A stretch of DNA of 64,000 nt from a virus: the IMG/VR virus record IMGVR_UViG_3300045988_165521; one strand, 5' to 3'. Below are positions 7,074 to 62,565 of the stretch, piece by piece. The position numbers were made by a program, and so were the translations under genes. The stretch's first letter is position 1; each line of letters opens with the position of its first letter. A model generated the notes under the pieces. It searched no databases. It saw nothing but the letters and a program-made list of their open reading frames with translations, and was not told where the DNA came from.

Positions 7074-7625
7074 ATGCGCAAATTAGAAATTCAGGCTTAT
7101 ACCTTAGATGAAGCTAAAATTAATGCTTTTAAACAAGGTATAACTGTAGTACAAGATGCTACCAGAAGCTGAAAAAAATCTGGATCTCCAGTTCTAACTA
7201 AAGATATGAATATATTTGCTGCAGATTTTCTTGAACAAAAAGGAATGTTTGATTTTGAAGGTGCTGGTATTATTATTGCTATAAAATCTGGCACTAAAGA
7301 TACTCGTAAGAAACCTTATAAAGTTATTAGTTCAAGACGTAAAGGACGTTGTAAGCTTTATCGAACTATTGAAATTCGTTTAAAACGTAATCATGAAGTG
7401 ATTGGAGAAGCAGTAAACAAAACTGAAGCGTTAAATCTAGCTAAAAGTTTAATTCGTAACTTTCGTGAAAATGTGTATGCAAAAACTGTATACAATACTA
7501 AAGATATTGATTTTGAACTTGAATATATGCCTTCTACTAAGGCAGAAAAAGGGCAATATATTGTCTTTGGAGTAGAACAATCTGATGTAAAACTCAGTAA
7601 AAGAAAGAATAGAGGGGCAGAGTAA
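7074..7625 (+). CDS. hypothetical protein (183 aa)
   Basis: ATG at 7074 is in frame with track ORF 7206..7625 through one TGA (ATRS[TGA]KKSG). A hairpin terminator follows. Confidence 0.5.
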
Positions 7626-27384: not shown

Positions 27385-27420
27385 CCTCTATCTGCTTATG
27401 CGGATAGAGGTTATTTTTTT
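27385..27420 (+). terminator. intrinsic terminator hairpin with a T-run
   Basis: The stem is cctctatc (27385-27392) / gatagagg (27403-27410), followed by ttattttttt. Confidence 0.6.
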
Positions 27421-40998: not shown

Positions 40999-43900
40999 TA
41001 TTTTCTAATTTTGCTATTAAGTATTTCTGTACATTTTCTCTTAACTCGTTGAGAGTTTCATTTGTACTAACTTCGTTATAATATGTACTTGCTATAGTTT
41101 CAGTTACTTCTGTATTTTGCATTAGAGCTTTAAGGTACATTAAAATATTAGGACTTGATTTATATAAATCTTTTGCAGAATTTAAATAATCTCTAAGTTC
41201 TATATATTCATTCATTGTATTAAACTCTCTAATTGAGTAAACTCCATCTTTATTTTCAAGTACAAAATTCTTTGAATTATTGTTCAAAGATACTAAAAAT
41301 GGTACAAATTTCAAATTATTTCTAGAGATAATTGTAACATCATCTGGATTCTCTCCATAAGCTTGTTTAAACAAATTCTTAAGCATAGGAGTAAGATCAT
41401 CCTTTATTTCCTTCATTACAATTTCAGGATTATTAGAGTCTCCAACAATTTGAATTATTGTATAATTTGGAGTAGTAACTTTATTTAATATTTCATTATT
41501 AACATCATTAACTGTTGATTCTAATAAGTCTATATTTGTAATTTGTTTGTTTACTCCAAACTGTTTAAACGCCTCATTAATTTTATTAATCTTTTGACGT
41601 TGTAAATCCTCTTGAATAGCTCTTTCAGGATTAACTTGAATCTTGTCATAATCTATAATAAAATCGTTTCCTATTAAATTAGAAGCATTTGTAGAATATA
41701 GTTTATTTGCAGTATCAACTTCATAGTAGAATTGAGATCCTGGAACTACTTTAACTATATTATCAAATACATAAATACCTTGCTTAAAGTTTGGATTGTT
41801 TTCAATATGTTCTTGAAGTTTTTCAGTTTTTCCAACAAAGTCTGCAAAGATATTATATATCATAAATGATGGATCATTAAATTCAAATTTACCAACTCTA
41901 CTAATGTAACCTGTTTGCATTAACATTTGATTAGAATCGAAAGATCCAAACTCATTATTTAGTAAAGAATCAAAATCAGAATAAGTTTTTCCATTAACAA
42001 CATATTGTCCATTCTCCATAGTTACTATTCTTTCAGTAACGTTTCCTCTATCAGCTTGAGTTACTTTATCTTCATAAGTAACTCTAATAGCATTAGTATA
42101 TCCTGATTGTGTATTTAATAATGCTCCTAATCTAAATAATATAGTACTCTTATAAGGAGAGAAATATGCAAGTGAAATCAATTGTCCAGCTCTTTCTCTG
42201 TTAAGATTATTTCTAACTTTAACATTTTTGTCTCCTGCTTTTCTTTGTGCATTAAATAAATTAACATTATTAATTGCAGTATGAATTATATTATCTAAAG
42301 AAGCAACACTATTTATTCCTATTAATCGAATTCTAGGATCATTTTGAACAGTATTTAAAATAGTTCCGTCTTCTGCTACTTGTGCTTTTAAGTGAGCTTC
42401 AAATTCCTTTTGACTAACTAATGGATCAGCAGAGAATAACATAAATGTATTTCCTCTATTCTGATACATAAATGCATAGTTTCTTGAATCTGCTTCAAAT
42501 GTGTTTCCTACTCATTTAATATGATCCTGCCAATCTGACTTACGTACTACTAAAGATACTAATTTTCCGTAAGAAGAGAATAAACCTCCTTTATTTAAGG
42601 CACTTGTATTAAAGTTAGATACATCAACAGTTGTTAACTCTCCTTCTCTTGTAAACTTAGCATAACTTCCAATTGTAAAATCTCCTGTATATATTCCAAA
42701 TCTTGGAGTTGTAAACAATAGAGGAATTTGTGCTGTTTTATCTTTTATCTGAATTTTTGCTACTAATAATCCTCTTCGCCCATTATCATATGGAACTACT
42801 TCAAAAATAGGTTTAGTTTTTAGTGCAGTTTCTAGTTCACTAAAAGCACGACCCATAGCTCTATCTTTATTTAAAGCTTGTCCTAATCGTACAATTTCTC
42901 TTGGATTTTTATAATATCCATATTTAAAATAAGCAGCAATTAAATTTAAAGCTCTAATATATTTAGGAGCTGCAAGTTTACCTTTTATTCCTAATATATT
43001 AAATAAAGAAGATTCTGTAGCTTGATCATAATTTCATAAATTATTTAAATAGAAATCTGCAATATCATTCCATTTAGAAATATTTAAAGGATTATCTGTT
43101 ATTCCTATATTCTGAGGAACTTCTTCAAGTATATCTACAGGAGGAGTAACAGATTGTTCAACATTAGGAGCATGTACTGGATTTTGATCTGTAACAGGAG
43201 GTTGTTCTCTAGTATTACTATTGAATGTTTGTTTGCTTTGTGCTTCAGCTACAGTATTTTTAGTCTCTGGTTCTACAGAAGCTTGTCTAACTGGTTCCTT
43301 AGGAGATTCACTAACTATTTCTGCTTCTGGTGTAGGTTCTACTCTTGGCTTAATATTTTGTTCTGAAGTTGGTATAACAGGTTCAGCTACAATTGGATTT
43401 GGATTTACTTCTTCATAATCAATAGATTCAGGACTATTCTCTAATAACTTAGTTCTTCAGTCTTTGAAATCACTAATTTGTTCAGGAGATACTTCAATAC
43501 TTCCTGCACTAGTCATATCATTAATTGTGTTTAACTTTAAATCTAGACTAATCCCGTTATCTACAATAATTGTACCTTTTGTAGAACGTTGAGTTAATGT
43601 ATATAAATCCTTAAGAGTTAAATAGTGTTTTCCACTCGTATCTTTCCAACTCTTGTCTATGATTGCAAATTCAAATTCATCACCTTGGACACTATCTAAT
43701 CCTACTACTTTAACATTATTAATAGCAGTATATTTAGCAGGATTATCAGTTATAATTGCAATATCATTAGATAGTTTAGATAACTTTTCTACTATTTTAG
43801 GTACTTCATCTGAACTATTAATAAATTTCTCCCCACCAAACGTTTCAGTAGTTTCAAAATATTTAAGTTTAATACTATTTTCAGATAATATCTGTTTCGT

Positions 43901-46900
43901 TAATAAATCGATCTCACTTTCAAGCATACTTGGATTATCATAGTATTTATCTCAAGTTTGATCTAATATGCTATTTAAAATAGTATAGTTATCATATTTT
44001 GCAATATTATTTGGACGTAATGGAGCAGTTAAATTTGGAGTACGTGTAAAATAAGTATCCTCAATTCCTAAATTTCTTCTTGCATTTTCATAGAAAATAT
44101 AAGCTGAATTTTGTTTATAATCTCCTAATCCAACAATTAAGATATTATTTTTATTTGCCCATCTTGTAATTAATTCAAGATCAATTTTAGAAAACTGACT
44201 AATTTCATCAATAAATATGATTCTATTCTCAGTTTCTGCAAACATTGTAGCTGGATTTAATTTTAAATCCTTAAGAGTATATGTAGGTATTTCATCACTT
44301 CCAACAATTTTATTAATATCTGATTCAGAAATTTGTTTTCCCAGAATCTGTTCAATTAATTCTGCTTTCGTATATGATAAACCGTCATGCTCAATTGCTG
44401 CAGATAATCGATCTGTTTGTTTTCTTGTTGGAGCTACAGTTACAATTTTATATGCAGGCATCATTTTACGTAGCACATAAGCTACACCTTGTGTTTTACC
44501 TGTACCTGCTCCTCCAAATGTTGCAATAAAGTTTAATAACTGACTTTTATTCTGTATATAGCTATCATCTGATGTAGCTTTTGCTTTTGCAGATAAATAT
44601 TTAACAAATTCATTAAATAAATCTTTTCTTTCAGATGTTGCGTGTATTAATCTAATTGCATATTCTTGAGAAAAAATTGGAGCTTTATTAAATGATTCAT
44701 CAGTAATAACAGTTTTTAAGTTGTTATAGAAATTTGCAGAAGGATATGCAATTAAAGACAATAAATAAACTGCCTGATCATAATCAGTAATCGCTTCAGT
44801 ATCTCTAGCAAGCTTAGTAGGTCTTGCTGTAATTAAAGAAGTTGGTTCGAATAGTGAAGTGATGCGGTCAACTATTTCGCTATTAGATAATTTTTGATCA
44901 TCTATAAGTTGATAGATTTTGGTTTCTAATCTAATAGAAGCCTCTTCAAATTCTTTAAAATTACTCTCCTTAATTTCTCCTGATGGAAAATCTGATTCAG
45001 CAATTAATTGGTTAAGATCTAAGTTAAATAATGATGCAAACTTATCTTTGATTACAGAATTTTCATTATTAAGTAACAGATTTGTAAATCTCTGTCTCAT
45101 ATTAATAGCAATATCTTTCTGTTCTCTAATTTTTTGTGCATTATTATTTTCTGCAATATTTATTAATGTATCAAGTCTAACCTTAATTGCTTTAAGATCT
45201 GAAGACATATTAACGGCAGTTTCTGTATCAATTTCTGCAAGTAGATCTTTAGCTAATTTTTTCTTGAACTTATTAATTTGAGTGTTATATCCTCCATCTA
45301 TAGAAGCAATAACAAGAGAATTTAAAATATCAATAAATCTACTGGTTTCTTTAAGTCTAGTTAAAGCATCCTTATTATTAATAATATAATCCTCTAATGA
45401 ATCACTATTAAGGTAACTATTATACTCTTTTACAATCAAATTAACAATATTTTGACTAATTCCATTAGTAGATACTGCAAATTTTTCTAATAACTCATAT
45501 GCAGGGGATACCTTAATTTCAGATTTAAGATCTGAAACCTCATTAATAAAATCAATAAACGTTCTTCCAGATATTCTCGGAATAATTCCAGCTAATATTT
45601 CATCTGCACTTTGTCCTAAAAAGTCTGATAAATTTACTAATCCATCACTTTGTAAAAGATTTTGATATGCAGTTTTAATTTGATTTATATCTCCTTTTGA
45701 TACAATATCTTGAAAAACAGCTAAGTCATTTGCAATTCCAAGAGTCATTGACTCATAGCCTACACTATCACCTTCTGTTCTTTCTATATATGTATTAATA
45801 GCTTTTTCTCAATTAGCTGCAGCAATTCCTTCAGTAAATCCATTTACATAAAAATAACTCTTCATTAATGCAACAAGGTCTACATCTGTTACATCAGTAT
45901 ATAAAGAATTGGTCTTTAAATAGTTTAAGAAGTCAATATAGCTATTTGCATATGTATTTAAGGCAGCTTCATTATCAGCTATAAATGTATCTGGTCTAGC
46001 TAATACTTTTCTACCTTCTTCACTCAGCTCCTGAGTTAATCCAAATTCATGTCTTTTAACTAAGAAATCTTTGTAGTTTTCAGTTAATTGTAATTTAGTT
46101 TGAAGTTCAGATACTTCTTCATTAATTTCAACTCCTTCGGGAAGTTTAGAAATAGCTTCATCTATTTGTGCCTTTAGATTAGCAATTTCTTTATCAATGT
46201 TTTTAATACGATTAGTTTGAATAGTTTCACCTGGAGCATAAGCTTTACTTAAGTCTACAGTTTTTTGAGATACAGCTACTAAATCTTGTGCAATAGATTC
46301 ATTTAGACTATTAAATAAATCATACGCAGCAAACACCTTTGTTTTCTCAGTTGATTTAGAATATTTTTCATATTCTTCTTTAATCACAACTTTTTCATCA
46401 GATGTTAATTGATCGAAGTCTTTCTGATATCGAACTTTGGTAAAATTATGAATACCTAAGTCATCAACAAAAGCAGTTGCTAATGCAGGAGTAGCTGCAA
46501 ATCTTGCTTGCCCAAAATAATAGTCATTAAGTTCTCCAGAGACTATTTTATCACGTCTTGCTCTTAAATCATCAAGTTTTGCTTTTAGTCTTTGAAATTC
46601 TACATCATTTTGAGCTGCTGCTATTTTGTTATCCACATCTTTAGGAGTTTTAGGCTCAAGTTCAGTAGGAGTAATCTTAGATTCTAAAGCTACTTTAGTT
46701 TTTAAGATATCTTCTGTAAGATCATTCCAATCAGAGAATATTTTACTATAAACTCCAGTTTCAATTAACTGATTTTTAAGGCTTTCTCTCTGAATATTCT
46801 TAGCTAAATTTTCAGTTACATTAATACCAGTCATAGCTGATAATGCTTGTAACTCTTCATCAGAAATGTTTAGTCCCTCTTCATTGATAATACTATCAAT

Positions 46901-48874
46901 CCGATCGATGTAACTATTAATTTGGTTATAAATAACATCGTTCTGAGATTCTCCTTCTTTTGCAGATTCGTAATTAATTTTATATCCGTCAGGCTCTTTA
47001 ACAAGTTCAAACGATTTACCCGAAAGATTTCTACTTCCAAGAGCTCCTTTATCACGTAATCTTGTTAATTCTCTTTTTAAATCAGAGGTTTTGCCATTTC
47101 TTATTAAGTATATAATTTCTTGTAGAGAATCATTAGGTTTTTGAATTGCCTCATCATTTATAGAATTAATTCTTGAATCTCATTTTTCATGTAAACTAAA
47201 TACAGCACCACCAATAGCACCTCCCATAAATGCAGAAGTATAACGTGCAAACGCTTCTTCTGTACTTATACCAAAATCGAGTTGTTTATCCTTATCTACA
47301 ATACCCATTGTGTTTAACGCTGAGTAAAGTGCTTTTACCATGTCAGATGAAACTTCTTCTGCTACTTCTTCAACTCCTTCATTAACACTGTCATATAAAA
47401 TATTTCCAGGTTTCATTTTAGAGATTCGTTGCTGAATTTGGTTTTTAGTTTTCATAACCCAATTTGCAGCAGCTTTAGGAGAAACAATTCCTTTGTTGAT
47501 GTTTTCATTAGTTACTTTTTCAGCAACGTCTTTAATAACTCCTTTTACAGATGTACGGTCGAGATATGTATCTTTAAACCAAAAATCTTTAAAATAGTCA
47601 TTATTCATTAATGCAAACATTGCTCCCATTACAGATAACATTCCTAATCCTGCAACTCTATCAGATGCTCCAGCTTGCTTAAACGCATCATAGGCATCTG
47701 TAGAAGAGGTTCCTGCCATATAAGCTAAAGATAAAGCTCTACCTCATTTAATTGTATTTTCACTAACATTTTCTTTACCTACTATTCACTTCGGTATTTG
47801 CCCAATTACTCTTTGTTGAAATAATTGTCTTGAGCTATCTTCAACTAATTTTCCAATATTTTCTACGTTTCAGAAACTATTTCTTCCATAATCAGAAACA
47901 CTTCCATCAAATCTAGAAAACCAAGCTTGAATATCGGTAGCAGTTTGTGCTGATTTAGAGTTAGTTAAATCTCCCTTAGCAATACCTTCGATACTTCTAA
48001 ATAATACTGGGAATAATTTTCCTATTTCAACAGCAGCTGTCATACCACCATATACTTGTCCAACATATGGAATAAGCATTGGACCTACTTTAAATAAAAC
48101 CTTTGCTAAGGTACCTCCAACACTTTTATCTAATCCATCTGAATCAAAGAAATCATATTTATTCCATTTACTTCCATCAACAGTTAATGTATCAGAGATA
48201 TGTAAAATATCTTTCCCTGTAAGTGGTCTATTTCCTAATGTTTCATAAAATGGATCTCCCTCACTATTAAATTTTAAATCTCCTGCTTTATGTGAAACAG
48301 TTCTTCCATTTACTTCATGAGTTCCATCTTCATCTCATTGAGCTAATACAAGTGTAGGACGAGCTATAGCACCTAGTCCACCTCATTCATTAGGTGTTCA
48401 ATCCTCAAACTTACCAGTATCATAATTAAATATCTTATTTGTTTGTGCTACTTCACGTATCGACATAGTTGGATCAGAAGTTTCATATAGATTAACTATA
48501 CCTCGACTTCTTCTTTCAGGATTAGAGAATTTAACTAATCTTGAACTAACATCCAGTACATCGCCGCCGAGAGGTGCAAAATAATCTGCAGGATCATATG
48601 TAAATGAATCCATAGCAGTACTTGCTAAATTAGCTTCATCTGCACGATTATATAAGTCTAAAACGTCTTTATAATATGTATCGAATTTTTGATTATCAAA
48701 TTCTCCTCTATCGTTTTTAAACGCCTCTTGTATTTCTGGTATACCTTTATAATATTCTCTATCTTTAACATTAGAGTTATCAGGAGTTATTCCTAAATTA
48801 ACTAACTCTTGAACACTTTTGTCTGGCTGAAAAAATAATGCCGCCAGCCAATCATTTTTCTTCTGATCCATCAT
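40988..48874 (-). CDS. giant multidomain protein (2628 aa) with an embedded complete SF1 helicase core
   Basis: The frame is open from ATG 48872-48874 (upstream in-frame TAA at 48878) to TAA 40988-40990. It joins track ORFs 48398.., 47870.., 47180.., 45809.., 43952.., 43457.., 42512.. and 40988.. via TGA only; I walked the gaps. The helicase motifs (about 43560-44530) are GGAGTGKT, VAPTRKQ, IFIDEISQ, GLGDYKQ, VQGDEFEF and LYTLTQRSTKG. A P/E/Q/V-rich linker lies at about 43150-43440. Confidence 0.75.
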
Positions 48875-48877
48875 ACT

Positions 48878-50773
48878 TTAAAAATTAGCTTTTATGCTTT
48901 GTTGTTGTTTTTTCAGATTTGCCTGATTATATATATCTCTATATTCACTAGCACTTCCAATTTCATGATTAGATGCAACAGTTGCAAGTTTAGAATCATG
49001 CATAGGCATAAATATCATTCCTTTATACATTGAATTTTTATTGCCATGAAATATTTTTCCAAAGAAGCCTGGCTTAAAGTTATCAACCTTTTTGTCTGAT
49101 TTCTTTACTACATCTCCTCCATAATTTACATAAGTTGAATAGATATCAAATATTCTATCTTTATCTGGTCCATCAACATGTCATAACCAAGGAGAATTAC
49201 TATCAAAGTCAATAGCTTTATCACTAGCATAACCTGATAATCCAAAAAATACCATCATATCTTCAGGTCTGAATTTTCATCTATTAGTTTCAGTATCAAA
49301 CTCTAAGTCTAGATCATATTCATGTAATTTTTCTATCATTCTTTGTCTAGATACATTAGGATTATCTTCAATTCATTCCTCAAATTTTGTATATCGATCA
49401 TATGCATCTAAGTCAGGCTTATAAACTCCCATTTGTTCTGCATCTCGATCTTTTGGAAGTCACATTCTACTAAGTGAACTAGAGCCATCTCACACAAGTC
49501 TATTTAAATCAATATCTGATATTCTTTGATCTCCAAAGAAAATAGAATTTTTATCAACAATATTACCTATTTCAGCCTTATCCAATACATTTTTTAATGT
49601 ATTTTGAGTTACTTGTGTGCCATTCTTATCTTGTAATGGATAATCCCTAGTTACAATTTCTAACCCTCCTTTGGCATCAGATGTTGATAAAACTGCAATT
49701 TTAGGATCTACAACTCTACCTGCAGCAATAGTTTCTAGAGAGCTTCTATTAACATCTTTATCAGTTCCTCCAGAACTTCCACTGCCTGCTTTAGATGCAG
49801 TTGAATCATAATCTAAAGCTTGTGTATTTTCTACACTATGATTTGTATGTTCAACTACAGCAATTTGTAGTAATCGTTTTACATCTTCAGGATTACTTGG
49901 ATTAAAACCTTCAGCAGCTGCTTGAGCTCTTAAAACGTTTTTCATATTTTGTGGAAGAGTCTTATATAAATAATTAACAGCTAAATCAAGACTTTCTTTA
50001 TCATGATATCCCTGATTAGATGTACTATTTGATTCTGTAACTTTATATATTCCATCTGGTCCATTAAATCCTAATAATTGTTCAAATCCTTTTTCAATTT
50101 TATTCTGATATTTAGAAGTATATCTATCAAACTGATTTGAGGATTTATTAGTTCCAAACGCTCCAATAGTAGCTTTTACATAATCTACTATAGATTTCAT
50201 TCCAACTGTATTAGATAAATCTGTAAGGATACTATTATTATATGCTAGTTCTGGACGTTCTTCTCGAAGATGAATTAATTGAGAATTAGTTAATGCTTGA
50301 TATTTTTGTGGATTTTTATAATAAGTATCTGCAGATATAGTCTTAATACTGCCGTCTTTATTATACACATATAAGCTACCTTCATTACTAATTGCAACTT
50401 CAGACCCAGATCCTTCTTTAATAATTTGTTCTGATGCAGTTTCATGTAATTCATTATTATGTTTAATTCTATTAGCTAAAGATTGTAATCTAATTAAATC
50501 AGACATATCATATTGATTACTCTGTCCAGATACAAATAATTCACCTAAGTTTTGAGATTTTCTTAAAAAACTATTAGCTCTATCTAAGAAGTAATCTACA
50601 TCATTAGGTAACCCATTCTCTTTAAGAACATTAATAATTTCTTTTTGAATAAGTTGTTCTTCTTTATTTTCACTTGTTTTAGAGGTCTGAGTAGCAACTT
50701 GTGTAGGCTCTGCAGCATCTCTAAAAAAGGGGGTATAACTAATACCCCCGTTTTGATATCTCTTTATCTTCAT
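48878..50773 (-). CDS. putative internal virion/ejection protein (631 aa) with an N-terminal KRYQNGG tag
   Basis: ATG at 50771-50773. Track ORF 49490..50773 continues through TGA (49490, 49460, 49373, 49277, 49181) to TAA at 48878-48880. Confidence 0.65.
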
Positions 50774-50775
50774 AT

Positions 50776-53700
50776 TTATGACATCATTTTTAGAAATAAC
50801 TTAATAATGTTATTATTTAGTTCTCCAACAGCCTTATTGATAGCTTTTTGCTGGTCTAGATATTGTTGCTCATCTGTTTTACGTAAATATCTACCGCCAG
50901 ATTTATAACTATAAGGTATAAATCTTTGAATAGGAATTTGCTCAGGATTAGTATAATTAATTAAATATGGTTTTGTATCTAATTTGTTTCCTCCAAGCCA
51001 AAATCTTCTTTGAGATTGCTGATAAGGATTAACTAAAGCCTCAATTCCATATTTACTTCTATTAGTAGCAATATCTCCAGAATATTTGTAATTTAAATAA
51101 TCATCGATTTTCCAACCACTATATTCTGGATTTTTACCCTCATTCTGTTGCCAATTATAGAACTCATTAATTTTACTATTTCTAAAATTAGTAAACCAAT
51201 TACTGAAATCTCCAGCAGCCTTTTGTTGTGCTAATTGAGCTTGTAAAGCTTGTTTTTCATTTAGATCCTTGGCATAGTCTCCTCTTAACTGATAAATAAG
51301 ATTCTTAACATTTTGAGTTTGTTGCGTAATCTTATTAGCATCAGCCATATCTAACTGAGCTAAACCTTGTGCTCAACGGTTTCTATTCTCATTAGTTATC
51401 TGAGTTCTAATATTAGCGTATTGTTGTTTTTGAGCAAGTAACTTATCATTATATTGATCTATCATTTGAGAAAATTTAGCATCTCTTTCTCCTTCTAATT
51501 GATCAACATTCATATCTCTCATAAGTCTTTCTGCTAATACTTTATTTGGATCACTAGTCGATGTCTTATATTGACGCATACTTTTAATGCGATCATTATA
51601 CATTCTATGCAACCCATTATCACTAAATCTAGAGTAAAACTCAGTAGGCATTTGTTGTTGAGAACCTATCATTCCTTTACGAATGGCATCTTTCATTTTT
51701 TGGGTAGTACGATTGATACCTATTGTAGAAGTAATAAAGTCTCCTATTCCCATTACCATATCAGGATTAATATTAAATCCTTTTCCTTTGCCATGTCCAA
51801 AAGCTGTATAATCAGAGTTATCTGTATTATATGAGGATCTGTTTAAATTAGACAAAGTTCTACTAGTAGAATCATTAAGTAATTCTTCTTTTGAATCTAA
51901 CCTTCCTTTAAACCCAAGATTATTATTAATTTGAGCCATTTTAGCATCATTTAAAATTGAATTATACTGATTCCTCACTACAGTATTTTGAGGTGATTGA
52001 ACAGCTTTATTTAAGCTTGTAGAAGCACGTTTAATAGGAGTTCCAACAACAGCAACTGGATCTACTTGTACATTAATCGGATTATTATTTTTATCTAGCA
52101 TATAATCAGCTACACTAGTTCAATTTTGATCTATTGGAGTACTAAATGTAGGATACTTAGTACCAGGTTGTGCTTTTATAATTTTACCGCCTTTTTTATA
52201 AAATACTGGATTATTCTCTGGTTTATAATACCAGAGATGTTGTGGTTGATTACTAAATATTCCTAAGTTAGGAGCTAAGTTAGAATAGATTGGCATTGTA
52301 ATAGGTCTCCGTTTTAGAGCTGTAACAGATGTAAACATTTCAGGTCCTCCGAAAAATCTTTGAACTTGAGAAGTTTGTTTATCTACATAGTTCTTAAAAT
52401 AAGGATTACTTCTATTAGTTTTTGCATCTCTAGTAGCAGCAGTCTTATTCCAATTTCACCAACCCATATCATCTGGATTTCTATAAGTACTAGGAAGTTC
52501 ATCATATTTAAATTGTCCTGTATTAAGTCCTTTACCTATTGAAGACTTCCAAGGTTTTCTCCAATTGAAATTTACATTAGAAGAACGTTTAATACCATAC
52601 TCAGAAAGTAAGTCAGTAACATTATCTGTTTTAGCTTTACCTAATTTTCCAATAATTATTTCCTCTAACTTTTCAGTTTTTTGATTTTTTGGAAGTGAAT
52701 TGACCGACTCAATCTCAGAACGACCTAATTTAATGGTAGGAAGATTTTTGTTATTAGTTGGTTTTAAAGTAACCATATCAGAGTTTCCTCCTTTTAATTT
52801 TGCACTTCCTGTGTTACGTTTTAAATTAGCAAAACCTCTAACTCCATTTAATACAGTACGAACATCTTTAATAGTTCATTTACCATCTTGAATATTTTCT
52901 CATGCAGTTGCTAATCCAGATGCAGCACTTCCAAAACTAACTCCTCTAGTTGCTCACTTAACAGCATTTGCGACAGCCTTAGATTTCTTTAAAGCTTTAG
53001 CTATTTTTGCTGCCTTAGCTCCTGAGCCAATCCCAGGAAGTAAAGTAGCTGCATCTAATCCTAGATTAAGTGCTAAATTACTAACATCGCCTCAATCTAA
53101 TCCATCTCTAGCAATATCTGCTCCAAAACCAGTTAATGAACCTACTGCACCAACTCCAGCTCCAGCAACATTGCCAAATCCTGGTACAAAAGTAGCACCT
53201 AAAGAAGCAGCATCTGCAACTAAAGCTGCAATTTCAGCTTTGTCAGCAGCAGTTAATTGTGTACCATCTCCAATAGTTTTTTCTTCTCCAGCAGCGCGAA
53301 GTTTTTTATCTGATTGTTGAATTGCTTGTTTACTAGCTTTTGCACTATTAACTCTATTTGCAGCAACTCCTCCAATTTGATATTTAATAACTCCTCCGTT
53401 TTTATTACTTGGAACTCTATAAGCTAAACCTAATTGTTCTAAGCCTTCAGGAGTAGTAATACTTCTTAGAGCAGAATTACCTCCTGTTCCTGAATATTGC
53501 TGTTGATACTTACCAAGCGTTTGAGTTTTAATTAAATCCTGAAATAATTGATATAAATCAGGATATTTTTGTCCAATAATTGGATTAAACTTAGCATGAC
53601 GAGTACTAATTGTAGCTATATATGGATTTCTAATAATATCACTAATATATCCCTTAACTTCTGGATCTCTTAAGATTTCAGGATGTTGCTCAATATATTG

Positions 53701-55386
53701 TCCTAAACGAGAATCAATATTCCAATAATAATTTCTCATACTATCTTCAGATCCAGGTAAACGACTATTTAATGTATAGTTATCATTTCCTGGGTTTTCG
53801 TCATGAAAATAGTATAATTGAGTTTGAGGATTATAATACAATGTAGCTCTTGTTTGAGGATTTGAAGCATCTCCAGTACTTGCTACTTCTTTATATCCTC
53901 CAGTATTTCCTATAGTATAGTAACTATTAAAAGCAGTTGTAGGATTATTTTCATAGTAAGAATTAACTATATTTGGATCTAATTGCTCTTGTAAAGTATT
54001 ATTATAATTAATTCTTTGTTTAGTTAAAGGATCAATATATACTCTTTCTGCTAAAGTTCTTAAAGGGTGTCCATAGGGATCAAACTGAGAAGAATCTTCA
54101 GGATTGTAATTAGGAAAATAATCATAAACTAAAGGATCACCTGCTTGTCTAACATAGTTACCAGTTAGATCTGCAGCATATCGATTTGGTTGAAAATACG
54201 GGGACCACATTGGATTACCTTCTGAATCAACAGAAGTACTAAACCATGGAGATCTAGAACGATTTTCATCCCAATATTGTTTAATAATTGAAGAATTACC
54301 AGCAGTTCTCTTATTATCTGCTACAAAATCTAAATACTTTTGAATTTTAGATAAACTATCTTGGTCATCACCCCTATATACTTTTCCATTAATAACAAAT
54401 AAACCAGAGTCATCTGGAATATAATCCGCATAACTTCCATATTTTCTTTTAAATTCATTATTAAGTCATGCATCTCCAGTTCCAATATATGATAATAATT
54501 CTGGATTATTTATAGTTACATTCCCATTTGAATCAACGTTAAATAGGTTATGGTACTTATCATAATCTCATCCTGCTTTACTTCAGTTTTCTTTTGTTTT
54601 CTTAAGTTCTTCTTGTGCAGGATCTACTTCTTTTTGAGCTTGAACAGGTTTACTTCCTCCTAAAAAGATACCAATATCATCTAATGCCATAGCATCTTCA
54701 TCCGTCCAATTTCCTTGTTCAAGCCTAGATATAATATCTTCTATGCCTTGCTCACCATATTTATTGTAAAAGTCTATATAAGCTTGCTTATCTAAATCAT
54801 TATAGCCTTTAAATTGATCATTATCCCCATAACCTGCAATATCTTTTAGACTACGAAGTCTTCTAGTTGCTTTTAGATTATTAGCTCCATTTATATAAAC
54901 TCTATTTCCATTTACTAATTCAAAATCTCCAGTATCTTTATTACGCTTATATTCCATAGTAATATCACTAGACCAATCTCTAATATTAATTGGATCTAAT
55001 GCTTCTACTGGCTTTTTATATTGAAAATCCTTTAAAGCATGAACTGCATTTCTTGCAGTATTTTCTTTTCCCCTTCATAGATTTCCAAAACTTCTGCCAA
55101 GTCTACTTCGACGTTTACCTAAACGTTCTGCTTGATTATTAGTAACATCAAACTGTACTCCTTCTAATCTATCGGCACTAGAATTATATGATAAATTAGC
55201 ACCTGATCTTAGAGCATCAGTTATTTTACTAAATTGATATGCAGTATCTTGATCTAATGTTTTTCCATAAGAAGACATCTGATTTAGAAAATCATCATCA
55301 ACCTGATATTGATTACCATCTATAGTAAAAGTGCCGTATTTTTGAGGAGTAGAACCACCTTGTTGATATTTAATTACTTGTGCCAT
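50776..55386 (-). CDS. giant putative internal virion/ejection protein (1536 aa) with glycine-zipper segments
   Basis: ATG at 55384-55386 (upstream in-frame TAA at 55402) to TAA at 50776-50778. It joins track ORFs 55075.., 54583.., 53092.., 52456.., 52120.., 51373.. and 50776.. through TGA only; I walked all gaps. It contains the Gly/Ala-rich hydrophobic stretch GATFVPGFGNVAGAGVGAVGSLTGFG. Confidence 0.7.
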
Positions 55387-55410
55387 TTTATCACACTTGC
55401 TTTATATATA

Positions 55411-55444
55411 AAAAGGGAGATTGATCATATCAAATCTCCCTTTT
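55411..55444 (-). terminator. intrinsic terminator after the small GC-rich gene
   Basis: The stem is aaaagggagatt / aatctccctttt with a 9-nt loop. On the minus strand the hairpin is followed by a T-run (plus-strand A-run from about 55410). Confidence 0.6.
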
Positions 55445-55461
55445 ATCTAATGATCATTAAA

Positions 55462-55791
55462 TTACTTTTTAGCAAAGAATTTATTTTTCATTTCCCCGCC
55501 ATTTTCTTTCTTAGCACATTTCTTGCGGCCTACCATCTTTCCACCTTTCTTAAATACAGGTTCTCCTTCAGGAACTTGTCCAACAGGACCTTGTGGTCCT
55601 TCGCTCATAGCTTGTTGTAAAAGAGCTAAGAAACCTTCACAGACTTGAGCCATTGCTTGACAGTCTTGCGTCTGTAATGCTTGAGCTGCCATTTCTGCTA
55701 ACATTTGTAGTGGATCTTGTCCACCTTGTGGACCAGCAGGTGCCGCAGGAACAGGAGCGGACCCGCCTTCTTGATACTTTTTAACTTTCAT
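55462..55791 (-). CDS. small Ala/Gln/Pro/Gly-rich basic-tailed protein (109 aa), compositionally GC-rich
   Basis: It reads MKVKKYQEGGSAPVPAAPAGPQGGQDP...EGPQGPVGQVPEGEPVFKKGGKMVGRKKCAKKENGG. It runs ATG to TAA with its own promoter-like motif and terminator. Confidence 0.65.
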   Translation of the reverse strand: MKVKKYQEGGSAPVPAAPAGPQGGQDPLQMLAEMAAQALQTQDCQAMAQVCEGFLALLQQAMSEGPQGPVGQVPEGEPVFKKGGKMVGRKKCAKKENGGEMKNKFFAKK

Positions 55792-55859
55792 AATTTAAAT
55801 TATTTTAATTTTTATAGATATCTCATAACTCTATGATTGTCATATATTCATTTAATGCC

Positions 55860-55891
55860 CAAAGATAACACTTTAGTTCTTAATATCCAAA
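55860..55891 (-). promoter_or_regulatory. Bacteroidota-type promoter candidate (TTTG-N20-TAtcTTTG) for the 109-aa gene
   Basis: On the minus strand, TTTG is plus-strand caaa at 55888-55891 and TATCTTTG is plus-strand caaagata at 55860-55867. The ATG lies 68 nt downstream. Confidence 0.45.
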
Positions 55892-55936
55892 TAAAATTAC
55901 TAAAATTTTCATTTACACTAAATTTTTATGAAAACA

Positions 55937-55968
55937 CTTGCTACATTAGCAATATTATATTATCTTTG
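55937..55968 (+). promoter_or_regulatory. plus-strand promoter-like motif (cTTG-N20-TAtcTTTG) in a minus-strand region
   Basis: cttg lies at 55937-55940 and tatctttg at 55961-55968. It points toward the plus-oriented terminator at 56072-56105. Confidence 0.3.
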
Positions 55969-55974
55969 TTCCAC

Positions 55975-56100
55975 AACCCAAGAGTATAAAATGAGTCTAT
56001 TTCATTCTCTTTGGAGATGCTAGATTAAACATGAGGCAATATAGGGTTATAAAAGATAGTTAGTATCTTTTAAGGAGAGTAAGAAATTACTCTCCTTTTT
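55975..56100 (+). ncRNA. candidate small non-coding transcript bounded by the promoter-like motif and a plus-oriented terminator
   Basis: It contains only a 10-codon ORF (MSLFHSLWRC). The boundaries are inferred from flanking signals only. Confidence 0.2.
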
Positions 56101-56105
56101 CTTTA
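56072..56105 (+). terminator. intrinsic terminator hairpin with a GAAA tetraloop and a plus-strand T-run
   Basis: The sequence is aaggagagtaa-gaaa-ttactctcctt followed by tttctt. There is no T-run in the minus orientation. Confidence 0.5.
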
Positions 56106-56106
56106 T

Positions 56107-56709
56107 CTATTTAGGAGATTCGATAAACTCACTTGGACGATTATCCTGTTCATTTATATATTTAAAAATCTTTTTTCCAAGTTTAGCATAATCAGAATCA
56201 GCTTTACTTTTATTAGCTCTTTTTGCTAATTTTATTAAAGTTCTAGAATTTTTTCTTGAGAAAATACGTTCGCCACCAACTAAATCCATTTGAGGTTTTC
56301 CATCAGATCCAAGAATATACATTTTATCAATTTCTTTTTCATCTATATCCTCTTCAAAGTCTAATTCGTCTCCAATCTGAATTCCAGAATTAGCATTAAC
56401 TTCTAATACATATTTAGTTCTTCCTTCTTCATCTTCAGGAGTAGAAATAATTGGTTCAGAACTATGAGCTTTACCTAATACTACATTATAAACTTCATCA
56501 TCTTGATTTATAAATACTAAATCAATATCGAATTCCATTTCCTCTGTATTAAATACTACTTGACCTTGATCTTCAGGCATTATAAATAACATACCCTCGT
56601 CATCATCCATAGATTCTACATTACCTAAACCCTGAATTCTTTCTTCTTCCGTTTCTGCTATTAGAACTTTATATTCTTTATCTGCTATTTCTATTTTTAC
56701 CTCTTTCAT
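56107..56709 (-). CDS. DUF192-domain protein (200 aa)
   Basis: YKVLIAETEEERIQGLGNVESMDDDEGMLFIMPEDQGQVVFNTEEMEFDIDLVFINQDDEVYNVV...YVLEVNANSGIQIGDEL matches the DUF192 pattern (A.T...R..GLM...GMLF...M.nt..pLDi.Fi). The stop is TAG at 56107-56109. Confidence 0.6.
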   Translation of the reverse strand: MKEVKIEIADKEYKVLIAETEEERIQGLGNVESMDDDEGMLFIMPEDQGQVVFNTEEMEFDIDLVFINQDDEVYNVVLGKAHSSEPIISTPEDEEGRTKYVLEVNANSGIQIGDELDFEEDIDEKEIDKMYILGSDGKPQMDLVGGERIFSRKNSRTLIKLAKRANKSKADSDYAKLGKKIFKYINEQDNRPSEFIESPK

Positions 56710-58052
56710 TATTTCACACTTTTAATTAGTCCACTTCTATCATCTGTATTCTTTAATAGTTCATGACAAACTAATTTTCCAGCTTCAATTGCAATTTCGT
56801 TGGATGAATCTTCTTGATATGCTTTATATAAAGCCTCAAGTTTATCAGTAAATTCTTTTCTAAGTGTCCATTCTTCCTTTTCAATTTCTGCTGTCTGAAC
56901 AATTCCTCCTTCAGATTGTGCTACTACAGGAATTCCTTTTTTAGTAATTTGATCTTTTAATTCTGGATTTACATTTTCTAAATGATGTTTATGTGCATGT
57001 AAGTTTCCTTCAGGAATTAAATTCATCTTACCTCCGAGTTGGAATTTTTGTGTTTCTGTAGATTGTGTTGGTCGTTTCTGTAAGAATGCTCTAGCTTCAT
57101 CTAATTCAGGAAATTTCATTCCGTTTTTAGCCAAGGAATACATATTATCTAATCCATTATAAGTATTGAAGTTTTTACTAGCAAGAGACTGACCTATTTG
57201 ATTATTCAGTCGCTTTTTACCTGCATCTGTAATATCTAAAGTAGTATTTTGCATTCTTCTAGCTCTAGTTATAGCATTTTGGCCTTTTCGATGAAATCCA
57301 AAGTCAAATAATCCAGCTTTTTTATTACTATATTTATCAATACTATTACTGATAAATTTCTTTGAACCACTATATTCGTTACTAATATCAGATGTATTAT
57401 CTACTAATTTATTAATACGCTTTCCTCCAATACCATTAATTAAATTTAATGCAGCTCCAGCAGCCATTCCAATAGGGCCAAGCATACTTAGACCATCACT
57501 TACCATTCCTTGTATTTGAGAACCAGTACCTTCAACACGATCTTTAGTTCCTCCAATAAGATTTCCTATAGTTTTAGCTCCAGTATTAATCATTCCACCC
57601 ATAGGATTAAATTGACTTACTACATTGTGTCCTATGTCTTTAACTCCAGACATTACTTGAGCAGTAGATCCAGTTTTCTCATTTCCTACAAGGGCTGTGT
57701 TAAGATTTCCAATGAACTGGTCTCCCATTTGAAAAGCTCCTCCAAATTTGCCATTTAGCTTATTTACAGTTTCTGCTCCAGCAAATGTATCATTCTGTCA
57801 ATTTCTAACAGAATCTACAGTTTTTTGTGAAAACATACCTTTTGCGGTAGAGAAAGGATTCCTTTTATCTGCATCAGAATCAGATTTAGTATCTTTAAAA
57901 TTTCCAATATCTGATTTGATTTTATTCATAGAAGCACTAATGAAAGCATTATAGTTTCCTAAGTTAAGACCAAGCTGTTTTAACATATCTGGACTAATAA
58001 TATTCCCAGAACTAACTCCTCCTATTTCCATTTTTTTTATTCTTTTATGCAT
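56709..58052 (-). CDS. putative internal virion/ejection protein (447 aa) with a glycine-zipper segment
   Basis: Track ORFs 57798..58052 and 56709..57728 are in frame and joined by TGA at 57798. It contains LSMLGPIGMAAGAALNLINGIGG, and FQLGGKMNLIPEGNLHAHKHHLE. The stop TAA at 56709-56711 overlaps the next ATG. Confidence 0.65.
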
Positions 58053-61000
58053 AACTTTGAGTCATTAATGTTTGTAATGCAGTAATAATAACAAGTTTAT
58101 CACCTTTATATTTAACTCTAATTCTTGCATATTTATCTCGAACTTTAGTTGCCTTTAATGGAGATTCAAAATCATTAGAGCTTGTTTGTTCATAATATAT
58201 TGGTTGTACTTGGAAATACCAAGAATCTTCACTATAGTATATATTACCTAATCGTCTTCCATATTCTTTTATATTTAAACAATCTGCATGTACATTTAAG
58301 TAATATTCATTTCGAATTGGATCTCATGTAACTTCTGTTTTATATCCTTTAGATTCTTTATCTAAATAGATTTCTGGGAAATTAGCGTTTGTAGATTCAT
58401 TTTTATTAAAAGTTTTATTTCTATAAATAGCTCTTTTACTAAATTCATATACATCTCCAGTAATTTCTATTTCAATAGAATTTGGTTCAACATTATTAGA
58501 TATTATTACTAAATTGTCAAATATTTTATGAATTCCTTTTGGTTCATTAACTATAAATTCAAACTCAAAAGGTTCCTGTTTATTATATCATTTAGTAGGT
58601 AATATTTGATTTGTTTCATCACTATCAAAATAATTTATCTCATCAATAATGTTACTTCTACCATGTACGAAAATATTATATAATAGTGCCTTATTTCAAT
58701 CATCTTGATATTTCAACATGTCGAATTCTTTTAGCACCTCATAAGGAATAATAGCTCCAGCTGTATATGATCGTTCAATTCCAAAAACAATACAATTACT
58801 CATAAGATTTCCACTCTCATCTTCAGAAGGATTATCTTCTGATGAAGTTACAACATATGGAGTATATTTTACTTCAATAGTATAATATAAATAGCCTCTA
58901 TCCTCTTTTCTGTATAGATCTTTAAATTCTATTGAAAATGGAGCCGCATCCTTCTGTTCAAGATAATTAGCATAGATTATTTTCTGACGGTCCTCTTCTG
59001 ATTCAGCATCTATAGCATTTCCAACATTTTTATTTTTAATTTCAACCCAATTCTCACTTACTTCATCCATAAGCCAGGTTTCTTCATTTGCTTTGCATTC
59101 AATAAGTGAATCAGTTTTTATTTCATCTTCGTCTCAGTAATATCCTTTTATAACGACACTATTAACATTATATCCATCATATCCATCAACTGTGAAAGTA
59201 AACTTTGAGTATTCTCTATCAGAAGTAACATATTTTCCAGTTCATTCTTCTCCTACCTTTACAAGATCATCAGTTTTCCGAAGATTATTACTTATTATAC
59301 TAAATATTTTACTCTTAAGCAAATCAAAACTAAAATATGTATTATTTATATTTTCTGATAATAAAGGAACTCACGAATATCTAGTAACTCACATGCTACG
59401 TACTTCATTATAACATATATTCCAAATTTTATCATTATTATAAAAAGTGAACATAACATCATTTTTATAAGCATTAAAGTGAGTTTTAACATTTCTCGTT
59501 CCTAATGCTACTGTTTTTTCAAGTTCCTTAAGATTTATTTCATCATTAAGGAATCTTTGAATTGTAAAATCAGATATAAGTTCAAGACCTCTATCAGAAA
59601 ATCTCCAAATTTTCTTAGTATATGTATCAACACCATATACTGCCCTAGGAGTTCTTATAATAGAGTCTTTTCATATAGAACCATACATATCAGATATAAT
59701 TGTCATTTGCTTTTGTAATACTCCAGATCCATACATATGAATATTTTGCCCAGTAATAGTTTGAATAAGAGCTTTTTCATTTATTGGAACAATAGCTATA
59801 GCATGTTCAAATACAGTTAATAGATTTCCTCCTCAAGGAAGAATTTTTACTATACCTCCATATTGTCTATCTAAATCTTCATATGATAATCCTTGGAATA
59901 CCTTATATGAGTTCTTAAAGTTTCCATCTACCTGAATATCACTAAACATTATACGAGTATCAAACTCGTCAACCTCATAAGGTACATCTATGTGCTTATA
60001 ATTTCTTTTAAATCCTAGAGTAGTACTATATCCTCTATTATATAAGTTACTTTCTGGAATTTTAGCAGAAGATTTAGTAGACATACCTTGTATAGGATAA
60101 AATCCTCTTGGATTTCCCATTAATGCAATTTCTTCTGTATTAAACTCATCAATACTTCTAAGAGAAATATTATTATTAGATAATCCTTTAAATGTTACTC
60201 AACTTCCAATAGCTACTGCATTAATATCTCCAATATTTATATCATCCCAGTTTTCAGTATTTCTAATACCTTTAAAATTATCTTTTCAAGTATTAAAATC
60301 TACTATTGTATCATTTGTAGGAACTGTTTGAGAAGTGAAGTTTCTATGTAACCTAATGGTAGTTGTATAAGTAAAGCAATCACCACGATATAATATTGGA
60401 ATCATACTCCAATTAAATTCTATAGAATTACCTTCCACGTCTTTATAATCAGTAGTACAATCTGTAATATCTTTGTCTTTTATTACACTAGTATCTGTAG
60501 CATATCTATCAGATACTGCAAAGTAAGGAGAATTATCATCGATTCTTATTTGAAAATATTCCTTATTAAATGTTTCGGAGTAATTTTTTATATAAACATT
60601 ATATAATGATGATTTACCAAGTAAAGTGTTACATCCTACAAAATCAGTAAATACTCCTCTAACTAATTGAGCATCGCTTGATTCTATATCCTCTTTTCCA
60701 AAACAGGTTTGTTGTTTAATTTCTTCTTGCATTCCTGCTCTAGTACAAAAGATATTATCATTAATAATTTTCTGAGGAATATCCGAGTCTATATATAAAA
60801 GTTCGCTTGTTGTTTCTGCATTTGTACTTTCAACATTTGTTAAATCTAAGGTATAACTTCTTCCTGATGCGTTATATTGATTAAACTTGTATGCTTCTAC
60901 TAATTTATATCTATCTGAGTTAAGTAGAGATTGCATTTGCTTATCACACTTAACATCTGCTGATAATAATCCTGAATAGCTACAATTGTTACTATATATA

Positions 61001-62565
61001 AGTTTTGAATCATAATCGTTAATCAATACCTTATTTTTATTTACAAAAGATTCTGTTACAAGCTTTGGATTTTGGCCTCCTTCAGAAAGATCAAGACAAG
61101 GAACTCCACTTACAGTGTCAACTCCTATAGATAACCCAGAGAATAAAAATGTTGGAATACGCTGTTGCCTAACAAAGTAGTATCCCTTAATATTCAGTTC
61201 TTTAAGTTTATTAATTACAAATTCAGGGATTCTAATTTTTAATCCCAATGGCTTCACAGATTTTCCGTCATGATCAATAATAGTCTTATCTTTAGTAAAT
61301 CTAAATACTCCTCTTGTATTTTCTAAAGTTTCTAAAGATATAAAATCTTTATTTTCTATAGTTTCAGGATCTCTTAAGTCTATATTATAATCATAATTAC
61401 ATTTATTACTTGATATTATCTCTCCATTATCCCCTTTTTCTTTAAAATGATAAGTTGAAAGATTAAAATCAATACCTCTAAGATTATATACAGGAGATAA
61501 ATGCTCATCATTATATATAAATACTACTCCTAGTCTATAAATTTCTCCAGGGAAATATCCAAGTCTATAATATATATTATATGGAGAATAGTATTCTGCA
61601 GCAGTAATATCCCCTTTATAAATTCCATATTTATCTGTAATATATCCTATATCATGTTCTTGACATTCTTCTACATTAATATATAACGCAAGATTACTTA
61701 AAGTGGCAGAGTCTTCTTTAAGTTTTGAAACATTTGCAAAGAATAATCTATTTTGAACTTGTGCCTGGCTTTTTACAGACTCTACATAGTTATATTGTAT
61801 ATTTAAATCTTCTGCAGTTATGTCTTCAAGTTCTTCAAATCCATTAATGGTTATTGTTTGATTGACATCAGTTATTTCATAAGTCTTTTTTATTTTATGA
61901 AAATCTGTTTTAGAAATACCATTTACATCACAACTTGTTCTACTATAATATATATTTATATAACTAAAAGACGTATCTATATTCTTAAGATAAAGTATTA
62001 TAGATTTATCAGTACGTTCATCCATATAAGCTCCAACACAAGTCTTAGGATTTGATAAATCTCCTTTAAATACAGACACTATTCCTGATTCAGCAACAAT
62101 ATCAGTTTCATTATAGTCACTATCAGAATATTTTATATAAAATATATAATTCCCTCCTTTGAGAGTTCCAAAGTAATCTACATTTTTAAATTGAATCTTT
62201 GGAATTCTAGTAACGTTTCTAAATAACCTAGTTTGTTGATCTAATTCATTTTCTGTATATAAATTAGATTGTTTAATTTGGTTTCGATTTATAATTTTAT
62301 ATCTATTATTTTCTAATAACGCTACTCTAGTATTTATTATTCTAGGAGGATTTTTATCATCGTTGAATATTAAATTTGTACTTCCATCATAAGAACTTTG
62401 ACATTCTATGTCTATAGGATTTTCTAGATCTAATTTTAATTGAGAATTACTTACTGTAAAATCATCAATCTGATCATCAGATTTTTTTAAATTACGTAAA
62501 GGATTATACTCTCAAGCAATATCTCCAGTATCCTTGTACTTTTTTACTTTCAGTTTTATATCCAT
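58045..62565 (-). CDS. large structural (tail-associated?) protein (1506 aa)
   Basis: ATG at 62563-62565 (upstream in-frame TAA at 62587) to TAA at 58045-58047. It joins track ORFs 60286..62079 (whose 'start' is an internal GTG), 59833..60120 and 58696..59070, plus unlisted segments, through TGA only; I walked the gaps. The function is assigned from position only. Confidence 0.6.

Follow-up and report, generated by a model that had tools for sequence, protein, structure and literature searches.

Organization of the putative cargo module

The viral record IMGVR_UViG_3300045988_165521 of IMG/VR was analyzed over a stretch of 64,000 nucleotides (nt), hereafter designated as the window. Its minus strand carries a series of five genes, designated gpA to gpE, that lies between the gene of a muzzle protein and those of four giant proteins of 2628, 1931, 1039, and 1478 amino acids (aa), the first of which is gpF (Table 1). 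The muzzle protein was recognized by its 35-54% identity to proteins of orthologous loci carrying PF25731 crAss_MUZ, and gpA starts 8 nt before the muzzle stop codon, on the same strand. Four of the five products, namely gpA, gpC, gpD, and gpE, share a short linear motif, [IV]-[KR]-K-[FY]-Q-x-G-G, with the first Gly at residue 8-16, which is referred to here as the tag. A variant, Φ-K-x-G-G-[KR]-Φ, where Φ is hydrophobic, occurs internally and near C-termini. An earlier note on this DNA, made from the sequence alone, had described such a tag at the N-terminus of consecutive, otherwise dissimilar proteins of a virion module; this description was supported, except that the motif is not strictly N-terminal, since conserved internal and C-terminal copies also occur. 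The same note had reported Gly-zipper hydrophobic segments, which were found in gpA (residues 187-205) and gpD (residues 719-737). Searches of the tagged proteins against PHROGs and Pfam returned essentially no annotation.

The gene models of this region depend on the genetic code. Translating TGA as a sense codon brought the summed length of open reading frames (ORFs) of at least 150 aa to 21,933 aa, up from 13,983 aa, and the longest ORF to 2,629 aa, up from 741 aa. Reading through TAG brought nearly no gain in summed ORF length across the window, and reading through TAA raised the sum to 20,758 aa, yet left the longest ORF at 741 aa. In alignments with a relative using the standard code, TGA was found opposite Trp seven times, Tyr three times, and Gly twice. 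Together with the gain in ORF length, these counts establish that TGA encodes Trp in the window. TGA = Gly (code 25) was rejected on the same aligned positions (two Gly versus seven Trp), as were gene models based on table 11, TGA being a sense codon. In-frame TGA occurs on both strands, in early plus-strand as well as late minus-strand genes (e.g., 7667-9910, plus strand, and 27419-31858, minus strand), the genes of the window being oriented on the plus strand up to ca. 27.3 kb and on the minus strand beyond. No tRNA gene, suppressor or otherwise, was detected within the 64-kb window, whose G+C content is 28-32%. Annotation of the window thus needs TGA = Trp, as the standard code breaks late genes into fragments.

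All nine peptides listed in the earlier note were recovered on the minus strand, where it had placed them or close by. The peptides and N-termini are real, but the many small genes to which they had been assigned correspond to four proteins (gpA, gpC, gpD, and gpE) once TGA is translated as Trp. As a consequence of this recoding, three presumed internal copies lie in the single protein gpD, and the fourth N-terminal copy is that of the 447-aa gpA and not of an 84-aa ORF.

Table 1. Genes of the putative cargo module, its boundaries, and copies of the tag in the window
Feature	Positions	Strand	Description
Muzzle protein gene	58045..62565	-	1506 aa with TGA = Trp; upstream boundary of the module
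gpA	56709..58052	-	447 aa; degenerate N-terminal tag, Gly-zipper hydrophobic region, conserved C-terminal domain
gpA N-terminal tag, MHKRIKKMEIGG	58017..58052	-	weakest copy; GG kept in 3/8 orthologues
gpA internal copy, QKFQLGGKMNLIPEG	57006..57050	-	opens the conserved C-terminal domain; kept in most gpA relatives
gpB	56107..56709	-	200 aa; DUF192, conserved C-terminal extension, no tag
gpC	55462..55791	-	109 aa; in order, tag, Pro/Ala linker, Cys-containing helix, FKKGGK motif, basic tail
gpC N-terminal tag, MKVKKYQEGG	55762..55791	-	10/10 orthologues
gpC C-terminal copy, VFKKGGKMVGRKK	55519..55557	-	conserved as [FY][KR][KR]GG[KR]
gpD	50776..55386	-	1536 aa, single protein with 11 in-frame TGA; N-terminal tag, three conserved internal copies, Gly-zipper region
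gpD N-terminal tag, MAQVIKYQQGG	55354..55386	-	9/10 orthologues
gpD internal copy 1, NKNGGVIKYQIGG	53368..53406	-	directly upstream of the Gly-zipper segment
gpD internal copy 2, FYKKGGKIIKAQPG	52162..52203	-	doublet Φ-K-x-GG-K-I-x-K-A-Q-x-G(G)
gpD C-terminal copy, YSYKSGGRYLRK	50878..50913	-	position conserved as [YK]K.GG[KRT]
gpE	48878..50773	-	631 aa; tag and YTPFF stretch, then variable Ser/Thr/Gln linker, then folded body
gpE N-terminal tag, MKIKRYQNGG	50744..50773	-	G9 in 97% and G10 in 95% of 39 non-redundant relatives
gpF	40988..48874	-	2628-aa giant protein; downstream boundary; no tag

Specificity of the tag and its wider distribution

The strict pattern [KR][YF]Q.GG has five matches in the 19,779 aa of the window proteome, three of which start at residue 5 or 6. 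All five fall inside gpA, gpC, gpD, and gpE, with none in the other ca. 40 proteins of the window, and the replication-side proteins carry no copy of the tag. When each protein was shuffled 1000 times, the mean number of strict matches was 0.019 and the maximum two, with no N-terminal match; none was found either in 9,379 aa of off-strand ORFs. A chance origin of the tag is therefore excluded.

As the earlier note had suggested, pattern scans were extended to related phages, and they showed that the tag is nearly absent outside the module in the whole genomes of two relatives. In MT835492.1 (TAG = Gln, 138 ORFs), the six loose matches all fell in the four tagged module proteins, three of them N-terminal as compared with 0.06 in shuffled sequences. 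In MT835470.1 (standard code, 119 ORFs), matches were confined to module proteins and four ORFs elsewhere. One of these, a 275-aa Lys/Gly-rich protein encoded upstream of the terminase-like and portal genes (L035, 106500-107327, minus strand), starts with MATKFQQGG and contains the repeats KCGGKAKRRIKK. Another (L034, 113887-116832, plus strand), 981 aa in length and containing a glucosaminidase domain (PF01832, 3e-9), starts with MKVIPKLQQGN and displays SFKAGGIIKYQEP (S-F-K-A-G-G-I-I-K-Y-Q) directly past the enzyme domain. Both are likely virion proteins. A 482-aa ORF of the structural region has an early copy, Q-Y-Q-V-G-G, at residue 29, and the remaining match, F-Y-E-V-G-G-K-I-R-D in a putative nucleotidyltransferase-like protein, looks like a chance occurrence. 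The motif was thus neither as frequent in non-structural proteins or shuffled sequences nor lacking in orthologues (see below), the two outcomes that the earlier note had named as counting against a shared signal.

Internal virion proteins of other phages also contain related Φ-x-x-GG motifs. When the DNA of IMG/VR was scanned for patterns encoding K-K-F-Q-E-G-G, at least 120 loci were identified, and 81 of the matches listed were N-terminal; those listed comprised Zeta-type gpC, gpE, and gpA, as well as contigs of unrelated phages. Since ca. 14 matches are expected by chance, a rough estimate assuming uniform base composition, some of the non-Zeta matches are noise. Extra copies clustered in the same proteins are not. 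In its virion block, a 17-kb contig (L042, IMGVR_UViG_3300025806_000393) encodes three proteins with the tag: one of 137 aa with three copies (MMDKKMAGYKDGG), a 661-aa transglycosylase with MNMGGPVMRMQEGG close to its N-terminus, and a 797-aa protein that starts with MIMSPAQIKKFQEGG. Tandem arrays occur in a 172-aa protein with seven copies (L097) and in a 270-aa protein with five (L101), and a tape-measure protein (L065) has FKKFQEGG near its C-terminus, overlapping phrog_35029.

Phage group and conservation of the tag

The Zeta group of crAss-like phages has the largest genomes of the assemblage, and its close relatives switch between the standard, TAG = Gln, and TGA = Trp codes (Yutin 2021; PMC7886860); a genome analysis of this group is also available (PMC12386605). 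Relatives of the module correspond to this description of large genomes and code switching: their contigs measure 160-190 kb, and they follow one or another of these three codes. Judging from these sequence features, the phage of the window, a crAss-like phage of the gut, is probably a member of the Zeta group. The module was compared across ten loci representing three genetic codes: L020 uses the standard code, L021 and L027 the TAG code, and the window and six other loci the TGA code. The tag was kept under all three. The order of the muzzle, gpA, DUF192, gpC, gpD, gpE, and giant protein genes is maintained in all related loci extending far enough in both directions.

In 31 of 38 orthologous N-termini, Gly-Gly occurs with its first Gly at residue 8-16, the proportion being 10/10 for gpC, 9/10 for gpD, 9/10 for gpE, and 3/8 for gpA. 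Among these 31 tags, Gly-Gly is invariant, Gln is found in 21, and Phe or Tyr one residue earlier in 22. The gpE family is represented by 106 cluster representatives with identities down to 24%, nearly all of which start with M-K-I-K-[RK]-[YH]-Q-x-G-G-[IV]-x-Y-T-P-F. In a 70%-non-redundant set, the first 20 residues of gpE carry 3.09 bits per column as compared with 2.29 for the whole protein, and the tag region is followed by a poorly conserved stretch rich in Ser, Thr, and Gln. For gpC, 135 relatives, counted as representatives at 50% identity, were collected from a library of 1.84 billion representatives. The N-terminal tag is strict in 85 of the 120 that were full-length and looser in a further 20 (105/120), and 62 of the 120 display the C-terminal [FY][KR][KR]GG[KR].

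Copies located away from the N-terminus are also conserved. The three internal sites of gpD are recognizable at matching positions in most of eight otherwise poorly aligning orthologues. Copy 1 is degenerate in L023 and L027 and was detected in L020 by motif scan at residue 462; copy 2 occurs in L028 as a doublet at 1122/1131, beyond the aligned block. In the gpA family, with 1644 matches, the internal Q-K-F-Q-L-G-G-K-M-N-L-I-P contains two invariant glycines (G340 and G341, alignment A1) and a nearly invariant F337.

The codons of Gly-Gly differ freely among tags and loci. In L021 (MT835492.1, TAG = Gln), an in-frame TAG (7219-7260; AAG TTT TAG GAA GGT GGA) stands at the conserved Gln position of the gpC tag. 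With such variation among tag codons and a Gln written as recoded TAG, selection on the tag acts at the level of the protein and not of the DNA. The same TAG also provides an internal confirmation of TAG = Gln in L021.

Structure predictions

The AlphaFold2 model of gpE, built from a 31-sequence alignment, has a mean predicted local distance difference test (pLDDT) score of 72.7. Residues 1-40 have pLDDT values of 30-37 and no secondary structure, and the body is predicted with confidence from about residue 45. A highly conserved peptide on a predicted disordered arm, placed before a variable linker, is the arrangement commonly seen in short linear motifs that fold on a partner. A Foldseek search of the gpE body against PDB returned nothing, and its matches in BFVD were all weak, involving uncharacterized crass-like proteins and a phi14:2 structural protein (E = 3e-3, template modelling score 0.15). 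The AlphaFold2 model of gpA was poor (pLDDT 52), and Foldseek found nothing for it in PDB.

Comparison with known systems

In crAss001, the muzzle gene is followed by those of the cargo proteins gp45 and gp46, then by those of gp47 and the RNA-polymerase-associated giants, all of which were found in virions according to PMC10172136, where cargo proteins are described as kept within the capsid and the tail and ejected into the host. The genes gpA to gpE occupy this same position directly downstream of the muzzle gene and, like gpA, gp45 (PF25725 crAss_CARG1) is the first gene past it. Several features of gp45 (L022, 11988-14516) recall the tagged proteins: F-D-T-G-G after a basic N-terminus, a Gly-zipper transmembrane region, five further aromatic-GG motifs, and a KKAKGGK tail, the aromatic-GG motifs being located at residues 17-21, 205-210, 259-265, 328-333, 422-428, 558-563, and 826-829. 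The portal-bound domain resolved by cryo-electron microscopy (residues 425-552; crAss_CARG1, 424-555) starts at N-A-F-G-G and ends just before FAYGG, and the tail-barrel-bound helix (214-245) starts four residues past S-A-Y-G-G. However, the motifs of gp45 are mostly A-[FY]-G-G, with the aromatic residue at -1/-2, and not Φ-Q-x-G-G, and gp46 of crAss001 has no such tag.

Homology with these proteins was tested and not found. No match of gpA to PF25725 was obtained even at E<=10, whereas the controls, crAss001 gp45 and phi14:2 g070, scored 2e-66 and 3e-10. Alignment of gpA and gp45 by hhalign was limited to the Gly-zipper region, with a probability of 24%, and a hidden Markov model of the gpA C-terminal region scored gp45 no better than shuffled sequences. 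A resemblance by eye between LIPEGxLH in gpA and FINEGGSH in gp45 was likewise unsupported. No sequence homology to gp45 was detectable for gpD, and a relationship of gpE with crAss001 gp46 was rejected (hhalign probability 0.4%; no Foldseek match in PDB). A large protein search with gp45 itself returned only relatives at least 96% identical. Since neither gpA could be linked to gp45 nor gpE to gp46, the comparison with crAss001 is restricted to analogy.

The closest functional parallel is the T4 capsid-targeting sequence (CTS), an N-terminal peptide of about 10 residues common to diverse internal proteins (IPI, IPII, IPIII, and Alt), which directs them into the scaffolding core of the head, these head proteins being ejected (PMC3012670). 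The tag shares with it the property of being a short N-terminal peptide common to otherwise unrelated proteins. The T4 sequence, MKTYQEFIAE, begins with Met-Lys and contains Tyr-Gln. It is otherwise a different sequence, without Gly-Gly, from a myovirus and not a crassvirus; it binds the scaffolding core and is cut by the gp21 prohead protease at L/I-x-E, whereas the crassvirus motif also occurs internally and at C-termini.

Sites cleaved by adenain and by pS273R of African swine fever virus (ASFV), two clan CE proteases, resemble the tag in having a hydrophobic residue before Gly-Gly and in occurring in several virion-core proteins per virus. These are eukaryotic viruses, and their sites have Met, Ile, or Leu at P4, whereas the tag has Gln at P4 (21/31) and Φ at P5 (Phe or Tyr in 22/31); no peptidase match was found in the module proteins or near the portal gene of a relative, and a GG-X site of this type was rejected. 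Bacteriocin double-glycine leaders, processed by the C39 peptidase of ATP-binding cassette exporters, are also short N-terminal peptides ending in Gly-Gly. They span 15-30 residues, among them an acidic one and conserved hydrophobic ones at -4, -7, -12, and -15, whereas the tag spans 8-16 residues, is basic, and has Gln at -4. Register and context being different and no C39 domain occurring in the module proteins, this identity was not retained. The small, Lys-rich, ejected virion proteins gp6.7 and gp7.3 of T7 (L159, 365-631 and 1036-1335) offer a looser likeness, noticed by inspection: gp6.7 ends with SAFGGKK and gp7.3 contains KKARAGGKK, which recall the FKKGGK tail of gpC and KAFGG/NAFGG in gp45, but both lack an N-terminal K-[YF]-Q-x-GG.

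Proposed role of the tag and alternative explanations

The motif is real, conserved, and specific; its function is inferred, and the three roles named in the earlier note (targeting signal, protease site, and docking peptide) are all compatible with the sequence data. Most likely, the tag belongs to the kind of shared targeting or docking peptides known from phage internal proteins. In line with the earlier note, which did not recognize it, no published description of the motif, or of crassvirus cargo-targeting signals, was found in the literature searched. We propose, with a probability of roughly 45%, that the tag is a shared docking or incorporation peptide recruiting unrelated virion cargo proteins via one common partner. 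Carried on a flexible N-terminal arm, it would fold only on binding this partner within the particle under assembly. As partner, either the portal or tail-barrel lumen or a scaffold-like adaptor is most likely; candidate adaptors are the DUF192 protein gpB and gpC, which carries the tag at both of its ends. The tag would thereby recruit and position several unrelated cargo proteins with a logic resembling that of the T4 CTS, and large cargo such as gpD, with its several copies, could bind in a multivalent manner. The internal and C-terminal copies, together with the tandem arrays found elsewhere, are more in keeping with a binding module than with a mere leader or cleavage site. Several points weigh against recruitment by docking. 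Packaging of gpA to gpE is suggested by synteny only, and the partner is a candidate. The N-terminal copy of gpA is kept in only three of eight orthologues. The giant proteins, which are cargo in crAss001, have no tag, so that it cannot be the sole route of incorporation. The internal and C-terminal copies and the tandem arrays are equally compatible with DNA binding or another role, and the aromatic-GG precedent of gp45 is a suggestive analogy, homology having been tested and not found.

Cleavage after Gly-Gly by a maturation protease of the phage or its host would remove a propeptide of 8-16 residues from gpC, gpD, gpE, and some gpA, and divide gpD into several pieces; such processing could coexist with a targeting or docking role. 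GG-X sites are used by adenain and ASFV pS273R, and in T4 the prohead protease cuts off the CTS. The invariance of Gly-Gly in 31/31 tags speaks for a cleavage site, and a cut at the first Gly-Gly of GG-VIKYQIGG in gpD would expose a tag-like new N-terminus. This explanation is nevertheless unlikely, as no peptidase domain was detected among the five module proteins or 10 ORFs flanking the portal gene of MT835470.1, and the precomputed Pfam list for the giant orthologues shows none. Moreover, conservation in gpE runs across the putative scissile bond (GG-I-Y-Y-T-P-F-F), the hydrophobic residue is at P5 and Gln at P4, unlike the adenain consensus with its hydrophobic P4, and the small proteins of other phages with 5-7 copies in 170-270 aa would be reduced to fragments of about 10 residues.

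A nucleic-acid- or polyanion-binding mini-motif comparable to an AT-hook, in which a Gly-Gly turn is combined with Lys/Arg and an aromatic residue, would allow internal proteins to sit in, neutralize, or hold the end of a densely packed, AT-rich genome. The 29% G+C content of the genome is compatible with this idea, and so are the C-terminal variants in Lys-rich tails, such as FKKGGKMVGRKKCAKK in gpC and KKAKGGKVRTKKKK at the C-terminus of crAss001 gp45, and the small Lys/Gly-rich repeat proteins of a relative (275 aa) and of other phages (L097 and L101). It suits these Lys-rich C-terminal variants better than the N-terminal tags, which have only 2-4 basic residues in addition to the conserved Gln and aromatic residue and which, in gpC, are often followed by acidic or Pro/Ala-rich linkers. 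The internal copy of gpA is an invariant and integral part of a folded-domain boundary, and the analogous AFGG of crAss001 belongs to a portal-bound protein domain and not to DNA-bound density. As a general explanation, DNA binding therefore appears rather improbable. Finally, the tags might have no common function, having arisen independently from constraints on translation starts or nucleotide sequence (A-rich Lys codons after ATG, GGNGG) or as a generic beta-turn. Highly expressed genes often have Lys-rich, A-rich codons at positions two to five, and this could contribute to MK[IV]K in the tag. However, the codons of conserved residues vary freely and one Gln is recoded TAG, which leads to rejection of a nucleotide-level explanation. 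Internal and C-terminal copies cannot be start-site effects, the other ca. 40 proteins of the window have no tag, and conservation of the tag in gpE exceeds that of most of the protein. We thus regard the absence of a common function as highly improbable.

How podovirus-like phages select and order the proteins that are packed and ejected ahead of the DNA is poorly understood. The 2023 crAss001 atlas documents where crassvirus cargo proteins are stored (PMC10172136), and a recruitment signal is mentioned neither in the passages of it considered here nor in those of a 2026 paper on N4 ejection proteins (PMC13434306). As a docking peptide, the tag would offer a testable handle on cargo recruitment and a sequence criterion for calling cargo in uncultured crass-like genomes. 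This is relevant to the Zeta group, for which a lack of gp46 homologues has been reported; no gp45 homologue was detectable in the present module. The tag may also become a tool for loading proteins into abundant gut phages, in the way the T4 CTS is used. A broader and rather unlikely extension is that Φ-[Q/K/E]-x-G-G, often flanked by Lys, might be a widespread, hitherto undescribed code by which proteins are addressed to the inside of tailed-phage particles, where a conserved receptor surface, for instance on the portal wing or in the tail lumen, would read it. Such a code might cover cargo or ejection proteins of crassviruses, internal proteins that either bear a transglycosylase or are small and rich in Lys and Gly, and the C-terminal ends of some tape-measure proteins. 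If true, packaged and ejected proteins of uncultured phages would be predictable from sequence, and foreign proteins could be loaded into particles by adding the tag.

Neighbouring genes and variability of the module

The untagged gpB is a member of DUF192 (Pfam PF02643, E = 8e-17, 61.6 bits with a cut-off of 27) and matched PDB 3m7a (6.7e-5). A DUF192 gene was found in every related locus covering that position and does not follow the muzzle gene of crAss001, phi14:2, or cr118_1. The C-terminal extension of gpB, ca. 80 aa in length, is conserved as M.VL..DG..QM.L.GGERIFSR...LG..F and aligned weakly with the C-terminal hairpin-plus-helices of gpA (56709-57050; hhalign P = 9e-4, probability 23%). 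On the other side of the module, orthologues of gpF gave weak matches to AAA_30/AAA_19, and the position of gpF is that of crAss001 gp47.

Several related loci differ in gene content. In L029 (3205-6893) and L030 (3634-6502), gpD is shorter (889 and 955 aa, respectively) and the module contains extra genes. Those of L029 encode a 360-aa protein starting with MKIQKYRTGG and an 818-aa protein ending with SYGYKHGGKIKQ; the view of the former as a split-off middle part of gpD was unsupported by BLAST. The module of L030 contains a DUF723 endonuclease-like gene, and in L020 a Cys-rich insert of 260 aa separates DUF192 from gpC. The module seems susceptible to gaining genes, to gene fission, and to the insertion of mobile elements. 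In the window, gpB and gpC are separated by 315 nt of non-coding DNA (55792-56106), the orthologous gaps being ca. 110-120 nt. A hairpin with an 11-bp stem (56072-56097), immediately past the gpB stop codon, may mark a transcription-unit boundary inside the cargo module.

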